From: a virus
Length of the DNA stretch: 64,000 nucleotides
Virus record (IMG/VR): IMGVR_UViG_3300047443_000115
Span: 1 to 64,000 of that record
Reading direction: 5' to 3' (one strand)
Position numbers and translations under genes: made by a program. The notes below the pieces were generated by a model. The model made no database searches, was not told where the DNA came from, and saw only the letters and a program-made list of their open reading frames with translations. Shown piece by piece: positions 23,505-29,590 of this stretch; within the stretch, counting starts at the first letter, position 1, and every line of letters begins with the position of its first letter.

Positions 23505-24842
23505 TCAGGCGTGCTCGATAACGACACCGCGCTTGAACAGCGCCGCGTCGCCCGTGCCCGCATCGGAGGGAACGCCGTAGTCGCCGACCCACGACCAGGT
23601 CGTGGAGATGACCTGCTGCAGACGGTCGGTCGGCGGACGCACGATCAGCGAGATGTCCACGCCGGCCGCCGGAGTGATGTTCCGGATCTCCGGCACATCC
23701 TCCACTCCCGAGCCTTCCAGGAGGGTTCCGGTCCGCTCGAACGGGGCGGCGATCAGCGCACCCGCACCGAGGACAACCGGCCGGTGCACCGTAAGCGTTG
23801 TCGCCGAGCCACCCAGGACGGTCGGGACCTCCAGGTTGCGCACCCAGTCAATCCCCGCAAACCGTCCGATGCTCAGGTCGCGGTAGATGGGTGAATCGAC
23901 CCTGCCTTGCAACGCCTGCTTGAAGTCGGAGTCGGCGAACAGCTGGGCCTCAGTGTCCGGGTCGATGTGCGCCACGTAGTAGCCGCCCAGGGTGGGGACC
24001 GCCATCTTCCGCAGGCGAGCGACCGCCGACCGGAAGTTCGCGAAGGTGACCGTGTTGGAGCTGGACAGGTCGAAGGCTGAACTGCCCGTCGCCCGGACCG
24101 AGACCGGAGCGTTCGCCGCGACCACCGAGTCGCCAGCGGTGTCCGCACGGGCCGTACCCAGGGTCAGCGTTCCCGGAGTGCCCGGAGTTACGCCGGTCAC
24201 CGTGTTCGCGACGCCCGCGATCGACACGGTCAGCGGGTTCGACGCCGACACGGCCGTCGGAACGCCGTTGACGAGTACCTTCTCGAAGCCGTTCGTGGAC
24301 TGCACGATGATCGATGAGTCCGAACCGGCCGTGGTGGTGCACCAGGTCCGGCCACCCGCGTAAGCGGTGTACAGCTTGTTCCGGGCGATCTGGTTCAGGG
24401 ACTGGCCGGCGTTGATGCCGAGCGTCTCGCCGTCGGACAGGAACTTGTTCGCCAGCGCCATCGAGCTGGACAGCATGTTGGTGTCCATGCTGTTGCCGTA
24501 CTGGTCCATCGTGACCGAGTACTGCTCAAGGTTGTACGTGGCCGCCGACGGGTCCGAACCCGTGATCGCGGTGGTCGCTGTCGCCAGCAGGCCGCGGCGG
24601 GTGAACGTCTTGGTGTCACCGAGGCCACCGGCCCACGGCTGCGGGTCGGCGATCTGCGGGAACAGGAACTCGGGCACGAGCGCGTCCTGGAAGACGCGGT
24701 CGAGGATGCCGTTCTGCAGCATCGCCCGGATCGCAGCCGGCACGGTGCTGCGCACGTCGTGTCGGTCGAGACGGAACCACGGCCGCGCCGCGCGCCGCTG
24801 GACATTCAGCCGCGGGCGGACCGCGGTCATGGTGGGGCTCAT
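23505..24842 (-). CDS. Major capsid protein
   Basis: 445 aa after scaffold and protease genes; HK97-fold-like segments (QYSVTMDQYG, YVAHIDP). Confidence 0.85.
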   Translation of the reverse strand: MSPTMTAVRPRLNVQRRAARPWFRLDRHDVRSTVPAAIRAMLQNGILDRVFQDALVPEFLFPQIADPQPWAGGLGDTKTFTRRGLLATATTAITGSDPSAATYNLEQYSVTMDQYGNSMDTNMLSSSMALANKFLSDGETLGINAGQSLNQIARNKLYTAYAGGRTWCTTTAGSDSSIIVQSTNGFEKVLVNGVPTAVSASNPLTVSIAGVANTVTGVTPGTPGTLTLGTARADTAGDSVVAANAPVSVRATGSSAFDLSSSNTVTFANFRSAVARLRKMAVPTLGGYYVAHIDPDTEAQLFADSDFKQALQGRVDSPIYRDLSIGRFAGIDWVRNLEVPTVLGGSATTLTVHRPVVLGAGALIAAPFERTGTLLEGSGVEDVPEIRNITPAAGVDISLIVRPPTDRLQQVISTTWSWVGDYGVPSDAGTGDAALFKRGVVIEHA

Positions 24843-24845
24843 TCG

Positions 24846-25034
24846 TCACTCCTGGGTGATTTCTACGGACACGAGGTCCGGGTACTGCCGGGCGTATTCC
24901 TCAAGCCCGAGCAGTGCGGTTTGGGTAATTGCGGTGATCGCCGCACAGACGCGGCCGTCCACGGCGTGGCCCTCGTGACCGGACACCTCAAGGAGCGTGT
25001 GTCCGTCGCCCAACCGGGCGCGGATTTCGATCAC
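24846..25034 (-). CDS. prp: Prp-like (ribosomal-processing cysteine protease/DUF464) miniprotease
   Basis: EVSGH(20)...VC(30)AAITA...LGLEEYARQYPD matches the Prp His-Cys dyad pattern. Confidence 0.8.
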   Translation of the reverse strand: MIEIRARLGDGHTLLEVSGHEGHAVDGRVCAAITAITQTALLGLEEYARQYPDLVSVEITQE

Positions 25035-25783
25035 TAGTAGCGCTGCCGGAAGCCGACCTTCGCCAACTCGGCCGCGACCTCGTCCTTCGGGGCGCTGCGG
25101 AAGTCGGTCGCAGGTGCAGGCAGACGCGGCCCCTGGCCCGGGTCAGGCTTCGGCTGACGTACCGGCTTCTTCTCCGGCTCCGGCGCGACTGGCTCGGGCT
25201 TGGCCCAGTGGGGCTTGCGCTCCAGCAGGTCAGCCAGCGCTGCCTCGATCGCGTCGGTGTCGATCTCGCCGTCCGAGTCGACGTAGTCCTTGACGTCGCG
25301 CATCAGCACGTCCACGGCGTCGCCGACGTCGGCGAACTGGCCGACGGCCAGCACCTTCACCTCGGCCTGCACCGCTCGCGCGGTCGCCTTCGTGGCCTGA
25401 TCGGTGAGCCGCTCAGCCCTCGCCTTCTGACGGTCCAGCTCGGACTTGTCGCGGTCCTCGAAGTCCTGGACCTTCTGGGCGAGGTCGGCGAGCTGCTTCT
25501 TGGCCGTCGCGGCTTCTTTCCTTGCTGCAGCCCTGTCGGCCTTCATGCGCGCAAGGGCCCTCTTGCCCTCGTCGCCGAGCTTGTCAGCGCCCTCCGGCTC
25601 AGGGTCCGGGTCCGTGGGATCGGGATCCGGGTCCGGCTCAGGATCGGCCGGGTCGGGGTCGCCCTGGGGGTCGACAGGATCCGGGTCGGCCGGATCCACC
25701 GGGTCGGGGTCGTCGTGTCGGTCGAGCCGGAACCAGTCCGCGCCCTGGGCAGCGGACAGCCAGCTTTTACGGATGCTGTGCAT
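25034..25783 (-). CDS. Capsid scaffolding protein
   Basis: D/P-rich N-terminus, coiled coil, KPDPGQG C-terminal motif. Confidence 0.85.
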   Translation of the reverse strand: MHSIRKSWLSAAQGADWFRLDRHDDPDPVDPADPDPVDPQGDPDPADPEPDPDPDPTDPDPEPEGADKLGDEGKRALARMKADRAAARKEAATAKKQLADLAQKVQDFEDRDKSELDRQKARAERLTDQATKATARAVQAEVKVLAVGQFADVGDAVDVLMRDVKDYVDSDGEIDTDAIEAALADLLERKPHWAKPEPVAPEPEKKPVRQPKPDPGQGPRLPAPATDFRSAPKDEVAAELAKVGFRQRY

Positions 25784-25843
25784 GGTGGGGTGTCTCCCAT
25801 TGCGGGATTGGTCTCGCACCGTTGCGGCGCAAGAGGTCTGTGA

Positions 25844-26122
25844 TCAGCGGGCCTTTGGCGGTTGCCCAGTCCCGGGATAAACGTCGCCGCCCAGAATCGC
25901 GGCACGTCGGGCAGCGACATGGCTCTGCTCAGCGGGGCGGGTGGTCTGGAGGCGCAGTAGCTCCTCGATCAGTTCCGTCTTCTCGCGCTCCGCCTGCTTG
26001 CATCGCTTTTGCCACTGCCGAGCGCGAGCCCGCCAGTACTCGACCGTCCCCGCCTCAATGTCAGGATCGATTTCGTCGAGCTGGCCATCGGAGGACGTTG
26101 CATCCCCATCGGAAGGCGCCAT
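25844..26122 (-). CDS. Hypothetical protein
   Basis: ORF with GGAG RBS within the head operon. Confidence 0.55.
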   Translation of the reverse strand: MAPSDGDATSSDGQLDEIDPDIEAGTVEYWRARARQWQKRCKQAEREKTELIEELLRLQTTRPAEQSHVAARRAAILGGDVYPGTGQPPKAR

Positions 26123-26177: not shown

Positions 26178-28157
26178 TCAGACGCTCCAGCCCAGATAGC
26201 CGTATTGGCGGAGCAAACTGATGGCCTCGTCGCGGCTACCGGCGATGCGATAGATCTGCTCAGGCAGCAGACGCGGCGAGGAAAGTTGGAAACGCCTGGG
26301 GTACCGGGGCGAAGCCGTGCCCGCCCGATAGGCGCGCGACCGCTCCATCTGGAAGTACAGGCCGCGGCGCGTGGTGCCCTCGTAGGTGGCGCGCAGTCGG
26401 CCGCCGTAGCCGTCGGCCGCGGTGTACATGCCGCGGCGGGCGTTGACGACGGAGTTCATGTCTGCGCCGTCCCGGATCGCCTTCGCCCCGGCCTGGGTGA
26501 AGATGCGGTCCTGCTCGGCGCGGGACAGGCCCTTGAAGTAGGCCTGCGGATCGAACGCGCCGGGGATGTGGCGGTCACGAGCGATCAGCTTTGCGGGCAT
26601 ATGCGTACAGTCACAGTTTGATACAATGAGACTGTTCGCAACGTGCCACCCCTCGACCGAAGTGAGGCTGTAAACGTGCCCGCTCCACTCGCTCCGGCGA
26701 AGCTCGACTACGCGATCGAGCTCTACCTGTCCGGAAAGCCGATCCAGGAGATCGCGACCTTGGCGGGCATATCCGTCACGCGTTTCCACCGAGAACGAGT
26801 CTCCCGGGGCATCCCATCGCGGAAGACCCGCGATCTCCCCATCAGTGAAATCGCGTCCGCCTACCTCAATGGAGCCAGCGAGTTCGCGCTCGGCAAGCAG
26901 TACGGGGTGTCCCGAAATGTCATCGCGCGCCGCCTCGCGGAAGCCGGAGTACAGCGGCGTGACGCCAGTGAAGCTGGCGTTGTCAGGGCGGCCAAGTTGA
27001 GCGCTGGCGAGCGCAAGACCCAGGCCGCCGCCGCCAACCGGGCCGCCCGATTGCGTCGCGTCCCACAGATTCAAAAGCATCGACGCGCGCTCGGCATCGA
27101 ACTGGCCGGTCAAGCCCAGTCCTCCGGCGAGGCCGAGTTGCACCAACTTCTTGCCGACCGTGGCCAGATTGCCACTCGCCAGCGCGCGATCGGCGTATAC
27201 AACGTCGACCTCGCCTTGCTGCCCGTCGCCGTGGAAGTCCTCGGTGGCGGTTGGCATGCGGTCAAGACCGTGCACGCTGAGCGCACCCCATACGTCCTCG
27301 ATGAGGGATGGCATCTCGTGATGGTCTGGGACTACGAGGGGCGTAGCGCCCTCGGGGCGGGTGCTGCGGACTACCTCGTCGCCTTCTTGGATGAGGTTCG
27401 CCGGAACCCACCCGCGACTTGTCAGTACCGGGTGATTTCCGGTCAGGGCGAGGTTCTGGCCGCTCGCGGTAGAGAGGACAATGAGTTCCCCTTGGAACCA
27501 CCGCCGCGTGGCCGCCTGTGACCTAGGCCCCGACACCACCACTCCGGCCGGGAAGCAGCGCGGATGCCGTTGGAAGCCGGTATTCCAGCCGTACTCACGT
27601 CCGGCGAGGACGATGCACCGACTGCACGCGGGCGGGTTGACCACCCGGATATAGCCGTTGATCGTGCGGTTCCCCGCGATCGACACCCCGGTGGCCGCCC
27701 TCCCGGCGTCCGTGACCTCCGACGCCGCCATGCGCAGCAACTGCTGCAGGCCCGTCATCATCGCCTCGACCTCATCGACGCCTGCCGCGATGGCCGTCTT
27801 CGACGTGATGAGCGGCAGATCCAGCAGCGTGTCCAGCGACCGACCATCAGCAGCAAGCCCAGCGAAGGCCTCTGGACGGACACGGCCCGCGGGATCCGAA
27901 CTCAGACCCCGTGCCGCGATGATGGACTCGACGTAGGCGTCTGCGGCTGCCGCCGTAGCCAACTGGCCGGCGGTCACCGTGCGGACCACCTCCGGGCCGA
28001 TGTAGATGGCCCACGAACGGCTCAGATCGCGGCGGTCGATCTCCCGCCACAACTGCTGAACCCGGTCCGCCACCCGGCGGGCATGCGACTGCTGAGCCAC
28101 ATAGAAGGCGTTCGCGAGCTCCTCGGCCGACAAATCCCGCACCGACCCCGTGGCCAT
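26178..28157 (-). CDS. MuF/VG15-like minor head protein interrupted by an intein (345 aa after splicing)
   Basis: ACSRCIVLAG...FQRHPR|intein|CDCTHMP; splicing restores the HPxCDC motif. Confidence 0.85.
   Translation of the reverse strand: MATGSVRDLSAEELANAFYVAQQSHARRVADRVQQLWREIDRRDLSRSWAIYIGPEVVRTVTAGQLATAAAADAYVESIIAARGLSSDPAGRVRPEAFAGLAADGRSLDTLLDLPLITSKTAIAAGVDEVEAMMTGLQQLLRMAASEVTDAGRAATGVSIAGNRTINGYIRVVNPPACSRCIVLAGREYGWNTGFQRHPRCFPAGVVVSGPRSQAATRRWFQGELIVLSTASGQNLALTGNHPVLTSRGWVPANLIQEGDEVVRSTRPEGATPLVVPDHHEMPSLIEDVWGALSVHGLDRMPTATEDFHGDGQQGEVDVVYADRALASGNLATVGKKLVQLGLAGGLGLTGQFDAERASMLLNLWDATQSGGPVGGGGLGLALASAQLGRPDNASFTGVTPLYSGFREAARDDISGHPVLLAERELAGSIEVGGRDFTDGEIAGLPRWDAPGDSFSVETRDGYARQGRDLLDRLSGQVELDRVVELRRSEWSGHVYSLTSVEGWHVANSLIVSNCDCTHMPAKLIARDRHIPGAFDPQAYFKGLSRAEQDRIFTQAGAKAIRDGADMNSVVNARRGMYTAADGYGGRLRATYEGTTRRGLYFQMERSRAYRAGTASPRYPRRFQLSSPRLLPEQIYRIAGSRDEAISLLRQYGYLGWSV
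26619..26627 (+). promoter_or_regulatory. Extended -10 promoter TGaTACAAT for the antisense endonuclease gene
   Basis: Antisense of intein codons ATT GTA TCA (I-V-S), which are rare in a ~70% GC genome; ~50 bp upstream of a GTG start with GAGG RBS. Confidence 0.55.
26676..27521 (+). CDS. Antisense-encoded putative homing endonuclease: two HTH repeats plus Vsr/DUF559-like PD-(D/E)XK nuclease
   Basis: AIELYLSGKPIQEIATLAGIS; AYLNGASEFALGKQYGVSRNVIARRL; SSGE...RAIGVYNVDLAL..VAVEVLGGGWH...R...LDEGWHLVMVW. Confidence 0.8.
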   Translation: MPAPLAPAKLDYAIELYLSGKPIQEIATLAGISVTRFHRERVSRGIPSRKTRDLPISEIASAYLNGASEFALGKQYGVSRNVIARRLAEAGVQRRDASEAGVVRAAKLSAGERKTQAAAANRAARLRRVPQIQKHRRALGIELAGQAQSSGEAELHQLLADRGQIATRQRAIGVYNVDLALLPVAVEVLGGGWHAVKTVHAERTPYVLDEGWHLVMVWDYEGRSALGAGAADYLVAFLDEVRRNPPATCQYRVISGQGEVLAARGREDNEFPLEPPPRGRL

Positions 28158-29590
28158 CAGGCCACCTCCGCGGGTTCGGGATCAGCCTCAGGCATGACGG
28201 GATCGGGCGGAGGCTTCGGGCCCGCCTCCAGCGCCGAGAAGTCGCCCGCCATGATGCGCTGCATCGCGTCCTGCGCGGCGGCCTCGTCCTCTTCCTCCAT
28301 GCGCTCGATCTGCGCCTGCGTGTACCGCAGGTCTTCGCGCGTCTGCCGGAGAGGCACGATCTTCGCCTGGAACTTCTTCACCGAAGCGTCCGCGACCTGC
28401 GCCACCGTCGGAGTTGAAGCGTCCCGCCAGATCGTCTCCAGTGACCGGGCCGCCGGATCCCACTCGCCATCCTTCACTCGCAGCACAAGCCGCATGACGC
28501 GCTCCCACGAGCCGCCCCACGCCCGCTGCTTCCGCTCCGCGCGCTTCACCAGGCGGGTCTCGCTACTGCGGATCGCATCCGCCGAGGCCGGGTTCTGGGT
28601 GCTGTAGCCCAGGAACTGCGGAGGTAGACCGGACAGGCTGGAGACCAGCTGCGCGAGCTGATTCAGCGTGCTGTGGAAGTTGCTGAGCGACGCTTCCGGG
28701 AACTGGACGACATCCGCGCCATCCTGCTTGGAGCGCTCCGTCGCCCACATCCGGCCGATGATCCGGCTGAACGCCGACACCCGACGGCCGGACTCATCGA
28801 CGAAGTCCTCCTCGCCGAAGCCGAACGCCACGCGCCGCGGCGTTGCGTGATACTCGGCGCTGACCATCATGTCCGTTGCGATCTTGCAGGCCGCGTCGGA
28901 CAGTGGGATGACGTCCTGGAGCTCCGACACACCGCCCGGACACTTCAGGCGCGGCCGGTTCGGCAGCACCTCGACCAGAACCTCGCCCGTCTCGTGCTCA
29001 TCCCTCGGATACTCCGGATCCTCGACCCAATGACCCGACTCCTTCACCCACCACACCGTGGCGTCCGGCAGGTACAGCGTCGCGTGATCGACCTTCCGGC
29101 CCTCGTCGCCGTCCTCCTGCCAGCGCTTCACCGCAGCCGCCACCCGACGCGTCCGAGGATCGAACTCCGCGAACATGTCCAAGGCGCTCTCGACGGTGAT
29201 CAGCGGCGTCGAGTCGTCATCCTCGTTCGCGCCCACCACGATGTACGAGCGCCGCATCGCCAGGGCATCCAGGTGCCCCATCTGCGACTGCTCGTCCATG
29301 TCATTGGCCTGCCAGATCCGCCAGAGCTCGTCATCGGCGTCCGCCACGCCGGGGAAACGGAAGCCCTCCACGTCCAGGCGCTCCTCGATGCTGTCGACGA
29401 TCAGGCGCGGCCAGTTGATGACGACCTGGCGAACCGTCTCCTGCAACTCCACCTGAAGCTCCGGCGCCATGTACGACAGCGGCTGAGAGCCCTCGTAGTA
29501 GGAGTTCAGGCGCTTGAGCTCGTTCAACTCCTTGTCGTGGCACGAGATCAGGTGAGTCAGCCACTGCAGCTCGGAGCGCTCCACAGGCAC
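28157..29590 (-). CDS. Portal protein (SPP1 gp6-like)
   Basis: YYEGSQPL, NWPRLIVDSIEERL, IWQANDMD, NPASADAI motifs. Confidence 0.92.
   Translation of the reverse strand: MPVERSELQWLTHLISCHDKELNELKRLNSYYEGSQPLSYMAPELQVELQETVRQVVINWPRLIVDSIEERLDVEGFRFPGVADADDELWRIWQANDMDEQSQMGHLDALAMRRSYIVVGANEDDDSTPLITVESALDMFAEFDPRTRRVAAAVKRWQEDGDEGRKVDHATLYLPDATVWWVKESGHWVEDPEYPRDEHETGEVLVEVLPNRPRLKCPGGVSELQDVIPLSDAACKIATDMMVSAEYHATPRRVAFGFGEEDFVDESGRRVSAFSRIIGRMWATERSKQDGADVVQFPEASLSNFHSTLNQLAQLVSSLSGLPPQFLGYSTQNPASADAIRSSETRLVKRAERKQRAWGGSWERVMRLVLRVKDGEWDPAARSLETIWRDASTPTVAQVADASVKKFQAKIVPLRQTREDLRYTQAQIERMEEEDEAAAQDAMQRIMAGDFSALEAGPKPPPDPVMPEADPEPAEVA

Follow-up and report, generated by a model that had tools for sequence, protein, structure and literature searches.

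The cysteine protease Prp of Staphylococcus aureus (SaPrp, or YsxB; PF04327, MEROPS C108) acts on L27 and on the scaffold and capsid of phage 80alpha. It has a catalytic dyad of H22 and C34, with G21 preceding the His, and S38 on helix 1 is essential (PMC9405229). Another C108 member, the protease of phage Cp-1, removes the first 48 amino acids (aa) of the head protein (PMC12445089). Here we analyze a considerably smaller relative, encoded in the first 64 kb (hereafter the window) of a 91.6-kb (91,588-base) IMG/VR virus record, IMGVR_UViG_3300047443_000115, which represents a Streptomyces-type phage. The head module on the minus strand has the order portal, VG15/phrog_1522 protein, small open reading frame (ORF), scaffold, 62-codon ORF, major capsid and head-tail adaptor. 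On the basis of sequence comparisons we consider it probable that the 62-codon ORF specifies an internally deleted phage Prp of MEROPS C108 (hereafter mini-Prp), which acts as prohead-maturation protease, recognizes W-(x)-F-x-L-x-R-H leaders and cuts after the His. The motif would be recognized at the end of the N-terminal leader in both scaffold and capsid, and a cut after the His (P1) would strip 23 residues from the former and 28 from the latter, leaving a mature scaffold that would begin at D24 and a mature capsid that would begin at D29. An earlier note, made from the sequence alone, had arrived at essentially this interpretation, which is supported by our analysis: profile match, size, motif linkage and host checks all held.

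Identification and conservation of mini-Prp

The translated 62-codon ORF matches the Pfam family Peptidase_Prp (PF04327) over profile positions 1-57 of 90 with 28.0 bits (E 2.7e-6), the gathering cut-off being 27 bits, and a Prp profile hit had indeed been anticipated. The protein also matches phrog_4478 'peptidase', and for most of its relatives a PF04327 hit has been precomputed. The NCBIfam equivalogs for ribosomal-processing Prp gave scores below threshold (best 20.6 bits versus a cut-off of 133). In the PDB, a single-sequence search returned spurious ankyrin-repeat matches together with a weak match to 1s12, and a search with the profile of the family returned one weak Prp match (E 0.025).

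Mini-Prp is a genuine gene that is subject to purifying selection. Searching 5.8 billion proteins yielded at least 345 clusters at 90% identity, nearly all of 62-64 aa (range 61-66), which come from Streptomyces, Nonomuraea, Streptosporangium, Embleya and metagenomes, and many of whose members carry the NCBI name 'ribosomal-processing cysteine protease Prp'. Purifying selection is apparent from the pairwise ratio of nonsynonymous to synonymous substitution rates (dN/dS) between mini-Prp and 35 relatives, the median of which is 0.21. Given this ratio and the length kept across clusters, the possibility of a pseudogene was rejected.

The residues G19, H20 and C30 are invariant in our alignments A1 and A3, and in alignment A2 the same is true of H20 and C30, with G19 kept in at least 90% of the sequences. 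The position equivalent to Ser38 of SaPrp, four residues past the Cys, is occupied by T34 downstream of C30 in the window protein and by Ser or Thr in nearly all relatives. Because the whole catalytic signature is conserved, catalysis is favored, and it is from this signature that we infer it. The earlier description of a 62-aa Prp-like ORF between the scaffold and capsid genes, with G19-H20 and V29-C30, was thus found to be correct in its coordinates as well as its residues.

A shared tag on scaffold and capsid

The octapeptide WFRLDRHD is found at aa 17-24 of the scaffold (nucleotides (nt) 25712-25735) and at aa 22-29 of the capsid (nt 24756-24779). It had been noticed before that the two neighbors of mini-Prp share this peptide and no other obvious similarity, with which the exact coordinates and a BLASTP comparison of the two proteins agree, the tag being their sole match (7/7, E 0.005). 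Moreover, a six-frame search of the 91,588-base record finds the pattern WF.[LIVM].RH in two places only, the scaffold and the capsid.

The association between enzyme and tag appears very general. We assembled 82 Prp-centered loci, comprising the window, Streptomyces phage Kromp (MH744420), 36 IMG/VR contigs and 44 prophages of Streptomyces, Nonomuraea, Kitasatospora, Microbispora, Kribbella, Glycomyces, Phytomonospora and Jiangellaceae. Mini-Prp is located between scaffold and capsid in all 82, and among the loci whose flank is covered the tag W(x)FxLxR[H/F] is carried by 74/74 scaffolds and 81/81 capsids. This conservation excludes a chance origin of the shared tag and bears out the expectation that motif and protease covary across relatives. 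The codons of the tag Leu and Arg vary synonymously across the loci while the residues are fixed, and therefore selection acts on the peptide.

A survey centered on capsids of 52-93% identity revealed mini-Prp upstream in 73/74 loci; the tags of these 73 are standard in 69 cases and variant in four, one of which is highly divergent. The single locus that lacks mini-Prp (L364; IMG/VR 3300036652_000041, 52% identity) has no room for a capsid leader. More specifically, its scaffold gene (31-687) directly precedes its capsid gene (720-1976), and Met1 of this capsid aligns gap-free with D29 of the window capsid. In the earlier note the presence of the motif had been tied to that of the protease, and the only protease-less relative (n = 1) is indeed leaderless too. 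The scaffold of L364 starts with MKMNRNWLESGFTLFF|NADAG, which resembles a canonical Prp site, perhaps one for a host Prp.

Two other leaders deserve mention. In a prophage of Streptomyces sp. T028 (L056, 3217-3330) the capsid leader has tandem tags, WFRLDRHD and then WFDLGRHD 27 residues on. In IMG/VR 2839578446_000003 (L199/L362) a divergent mini-Prp of 74 aa (GHQGSGDGGDGKVC) precedes a capsid with the leader GWLRVPFQRAAVASH|D, which may represent a further variant of the tag.

Predicted cleavage site and specificity

Five lines of evidence place the predicted scissile bond probably at R-H|D. The W, F, L, R and H of the tag are fixed, and the first variable residue of the region is the one after the His (D, A, N, E or G). 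In the Nonomuraea/Microbispora subclade, where W-x-F replaces W-F in both substrates, the scaffolds have Phe for His at P1 in 5/6 loci (LARF|DE). Phe is the canonical P1 residue of Prp, stacked on the catalytic His, and in the substrate LNLQFF|A of SaPrp both Leu residues lie in the dimer interface (PMC9405229). Counting from the His, the P6 Phe and P4 Leu of the tag take the positions of these two Leu residues. In addition, a cut after His28 is supported by the alignment of Met1 of the leaderless L364 capsid with D29. The fifth line comes from the C108 protease of Cp-1, as residue 48 of its head protein, from which the first 48 residues are removed (PMC12445089), is likewise His. The earlier proposal of a new specificity stood in part: the P1 His and P3 do differ, but the P6 Phe, the P4 Leu and the P2 Arg also occur in other phage Prp tags, and the specificity is, judging from the tags, a modest derivative of the canonical Prp site.

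A second mini-Prp clade (63-77 aa) was found on contigs with a guanine-cytosine (GC) content of 45-54% (loci L200-L217), in which the genes are ordered minor head protein, mini-Prp, scaffold, capsid. In nearly all of the loci L200-L216 the two head proteins, scaffold and capsid, carry tags of the forms W-x-F-x-[LIM]-Q-R-F|[N/S] and F-x-[LI]-Q-[RK]-F|[N/A]. These lower-GC enzymes keep an Asp in the motif G-K-D-I-V-C, whereas the actinophage clade reads G-R-V-C, with a two-residue gap relative to the G-K-D-I-V-C of other Prps (A3). The corresponding residue of SaPrp, Asp31, binds Gln at P3 of the substrate, and a D31A exchange abolishes activity (PMC9405229). The tags follow suit: those that belong to Asp-bearing enzymes have Gln at P3, whereas those of the Asp-less actinophage enzymes have a variable P3 with an invariant P2 Arg and P1 His. 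Thus, in the comparison of the two clades the loss of the Asp31 equivalent accompanies the loss of the P3 Gln, which supports a direct relation between enzyme and substrate.

Internal deletion and structural model

Against 1.84 billion representatives, a family profile retrieved 708 relatives; of the 150 best, about 40 have lengths of 58-83 aa. Canonical Prps (100-115 aa) match this profile in two stretches, one N-terminal and one C-terminal. Alignment A3 has a single internal gap of 40-44 columns, between the T-A-x-L-G-L of helix 1 and the similar T-M-x-L-G-L of helix 2. Before the gap mini-Prp retains beta1-beta2, the Gly-His loop, and the Cys with the N-terminal half of helix 1; after it come the last part of helix 2 and the final strand. 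Both ends of mini-Prp line up with the genuine N- and C-termini of canonical Prp. The earlier estimate of an enzyme about 40 aa shorter than canonical Prp thus translates into one internal deletion. The full two-unit fold (beta1-beta2-alpha1-beta3-beta4-alpha2-beta5, approximately 95-115 aa) is not present in mini-Prp.

In an AlphaFold2 model (predicted local distance difference test score 94) the protein consists of a hairpin (3-18), a loop (19-27), a helix (28-50) and an extended tail. A comparison of the model with 48,161 chains ranked four solved Prps first (2idl, 2g0i, 1s12 and 4peo; Z 4.1-4.9, root-mean-square deviation 2.4 A), and Foldseek gave no match with E < 1 in the PDB. From this comparison, with its low Z-scores, we infer that the Prp fold would be made up of two similar units, one of which would constitute the mini form. 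Mini-Prp would then probably be a homo-oligomer in which the two-unit fold is rebuilt.

A tree based on 64 shared columns was poorly resolved, yet the short proteins cluster in it, with 5 changes versus 14.7 expected from shuffles. The mini-Prps possibly form a broad phage-borne clade of single origin, spread over actinobacterial and lower-GC hosts.

Alternative explanations

Several observations weigh against a protease function. The PF04327 score is barely above the cut-off and, at 25.7 bits, does not reach it in the genome scan; the structural Z-scores stay below 5, and it is the C-terminal beta-beta-alpha-beta half of the solved Prps to which the model aligns. Mini-Prp is devoid of the beta3-beta4 region, which in SaPrp contacts Gly21 through Gly65 (PMC9405229), and the actinophage enzymes are devoid of an Asp three residues before the Cys, the equivalent of Asp31. 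The control provided by protease-less relatives comes down to one locus. Finally, in the staphylococcal phage 80alpha cleavage by Prp is dispensable, whereas the scaffold leader itself is required (PMC5744158), and by analogy the tag may serve for more than cleavage.

Part of this evidence is also in line with an alternative that we regard as unlikely although it survives best, namely that mini-Prp is a non-catalytic, leader-binding assembly factor or chaperone which coordinates the folding or co-assembly of scaffold and capsid, the leaders being left uncut or being cut otherwise. The missing beta3-beta4 region and Asp31 equivalent are both important in SaPrp, and 80alpha assembly needs the leader and not its cleavage (PMC5744158). 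However, the Gly-His, the Cys and the Ser/Thr are retained in divergent mini-Prps that, outside its own clade, have approximately 31-58% identity to the window protein, and mere binding would not need catalytic residues. Moreover, the leaderless L364 homologue begins precisely at the predicted P1', and His and Phe are interchanged at one position only, which is the aromatic P1 of known Prp sites.

Removal of the leaders by another protease, either the VG15/phrog_1522 protein or a host enzyme, with an unrelated role for mini-Prp, is more doubtful still. The VG15 protein is labelled 'capsid maturation protease' in PHROGs and, as gp4, in the GenBank record of Kromp, but searches of Pfam, NCBIfam and PDB sequences revealed no protease domain in it. 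It contains a CxxC...HPxCxC motif, which we take to be typical of MuF-like minor head proteins, and its gene has the position at which genes for minor-head-protein-like products lie in Firmicute-type Prp-bearing phage loci. The label is probably wrong. In addition, the tag resembles Prp sites and no other known site. With respect to the hosts, the three Streptomyces-type genomes that were searched have no cellular Prp, their sole Prp match being a prophage gene, and their L27 starts MAHKKGASS, without a leader, in line with the earlier remark that Actinobacteria generally lack the L27 extension. The classical prohead protease families PF04586 (HK97 S78), PF00574 (ClpP S14) and PF01343 (S49) have no match at E <= 0.1 in the 91.6-kb record. 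Considering that S78, ClpP and S49 proteases are not found in the record, that the hosts have no Prp and that their L27 is leaderless, the head-maturation system appears self-contained, as had been proposed. A decoy or inhibitor of host Prp was considered and rejected, since the hosts lack Prp.

The least probable explanation, that the shared 24-nt stretch is an element of the DNA itself, either regulatory or left by gene conversion, instead of a peptide signal, and the small ORF the remnant of a decaying full-size Prp, draws on the near-identity of the two window copies as DNA (23/24 nt) and was rejected, as it is contradicted by the synonymous variation of the Leu and Arg codons with fixed residues, by an ORF length kept in hundreds of clusters with a dN/dS of about 0.2, and by the match of both termini to canonical Prp.

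Returning to mini-Prp as the maturation protease, a more far-reaching form of this proposal holds that a 62-residue Prp of one beta-beta-alpha unit is an autonomous, active, homo-oligomeric endopeptidase, whose specificity for P1 His and a P3 other than Gln co-evolved with the loss of the Asp31 loop, and that it belongs to a broad and possibly single-origin clade. This form is tentative, and we put its chances at somewhat less than even. To our knowledge, an active 62-residue Prp would rank among the smallest natural proteases.

Genomic setting

The features of the head module are listed in Table 1. The GTG start of mini-Prp and the stop of the scaffold gene overlap by 1 nt, and the capsid ATG lies 4 nt after the mini-Prp stop. 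An alternative GTG start of the scaffold ORF is found at 25819.

Table 1. Coordinates of the head-module features in the window, with predicted processing products
Feature	Position	Strand	Remarks
Mini-Prp gene, 62 aa	24846..25034	-	One beta-hairpin, Gly-His loop, Cys-bearing helix, C-terminal strand
Predicted active-site stretch G19-H20 ... G27-R28-V29-C30 (His/Cys dyad)	24945..24980	-	Roles according to the SaPrp review (PMC9405229)
Scaffolding protein gene, 249 aa from ATG	25034..25783	-	phrog_4708 E 6.9e-21; Pfam Phage_scaffold E 4e-5
Scaffold leader, aa 1-23, ends WFRLDRH	25715..25783	-	Predicted product of a cut after H23
Major capsid protein gene, 445 aa, HK97/N4-gp56-like	23505..24842	-	phrog_1357 E 1.7e-26; TIGR04387 E 4e-14
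Capsid leader, aa 1-28, ends WFRLDRH	24759..24842	-	Predicted mature N-terminus D29
VG15/phrog_1522 protein gene, intein-interrupted	26178..28157	-	'Head maturation protease' in databases; minor-head-protein position
SPP1-type portal protein gene	28157..29590	-	PF05133 E 5.9e-59

The small ORF between the VG15 and scaffold genes (92 aa; 25844-26122, minus strand) matches no Pfam or PHROGs family. The intein of the VG15 protein (approximately 318 aa; about 26600-27554, minus strand) begins CFPAG and ends IVSN followed by Cys, and is inserted inside the CxxC...HPR|CDC motif; the Kromp orthologue gp4 is intein-free. On the opposite strand an ORF of 292 aa (26643-27521, plus strand) lies wholly within the intein-coding stretch and matches phrog_664 'DNA binding protein' (E 6.8e-6), next to weak matches to helix-turn-helix profiles. 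It may be a nested gene, perhaps with a homing function, or an artefact of high GC content.

Novelty and implications

The gene itself has been labelled before, as 'protease' in Kromp and as 'Prp' by NCBI in prophages. A literature search that combined Prp/YsxB with phage gave no paper that describes a truncated phage Prp or Prp tags of actinophages. New in the present comparison of sequences are the second, lower-GC mini-Prp clade with its putative W-x-F-x-L-Q-R-F tags, the apparent covariation of Asp31 and P3 Gln, the anatomy of the predicted deletion and the control provided by the leaderless homologue.

If active, mini-Prp, being half of an enzyme that is itself small, would offer a minimal protease scaffold whose recognition tag is well defined, short and portable, and it could find use as a compact tool for tag removal. 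It also raises a question about the evolution of the fold, namely whether Prp arose by duplication of a unit or the mini form by deletion between internal repeats. Prp-type head maturation would be extended from Firmicute phages to actinophages of Prp-less hosts. For the cultured phage Kromp the prediction is that mature capsid and scaffold begin right after the R-H of the tag. The NCBI name 'ribosomal-processing cysteine protease' is misleading for the prophage copies and in fact a misnomer, as the L27 of the hosts is leaderless.

Relation to described systems

A cultured relative is Kromp, which provided the only match to the mini-Prp gene among 50,697 GenBank phage records. At 67% nucleotide identity it has the same arrangement, with a gp5 scaffold that carries WFQLTRHD, a 62-aa gp6 'protease' and a gp7 capsid that carries WFRLDRHD. 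It differs in that gp6 is known by its annotation label only, no description of tag, truncation or cleavage having been found.

Phage Cp-1 had been said to encode its own Prp, with which the weak Prp-profile match of orf13 and the MEROPS C108 listing (PMC12445089) are in accordance. Like mini-Prp, orf13 is a phage-encoded protease of the Prp family, and, as is predicted for mini-Prp, it takes an N-terminal leader off the major head protein. In the Cp-1 head protein residue 48 is His, the last one removed if the 48 residues given in PMC12445089 are counted from Met1; on the same reading the site is RINH|A, which has only the His in common with the window tag. Moreover, orf13 is full-size (104 aa) and does not adjoin the genes of scaffold and capsid.

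Many Firmicute-type viral contigs have a full-size Prp (95-110 aa) beside scaffolds that start KLNLQLF|G or FDLQRF|A, and in the literature no paper was found on such phage-encoded full-size Prps with L27-like leaders. The likeness to the window lies in a protease gene inside the head module, adjoining the genes of tagged scaffolds, and the difference in enzymes of 95-110 aa and in the canonical Q-x-F site, which is retained. In two of these loci, L227 (1145-1300) and L245 (991-1100), KLNLQFF|AS and MNLQLF|AQ head an ORF of approximately 500 aa that resembles a minor head protein and another ORF; Prp tags are thus not confined to scaffold and capsid.

The comparison with SaPrp and 80alpha reveals the same design in a reduced form. 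The Gly-His...Cys...Ser signature is common to both enzymes, short N-terminal leaders are present on both scaffold and capsid, and the 80alpha tags have the pattern hydrophobic-x-Leu-x-x-aromatic and are cut directly after it, as is predicted here. In contrast to SaPrp, the window enzyme is phage-encoded, has 62 instead of approximately 106 aa, the beta3-beta4 region and the helix junction being deleted, and lacks the Asp31 equivalent. Its predicted site has His instead of Phe at P1, a P3 other than Gln, and mostly Asp instead of Ala or Ser at P1', and hosts of the window type have neither a Prp nor a leader on L27.

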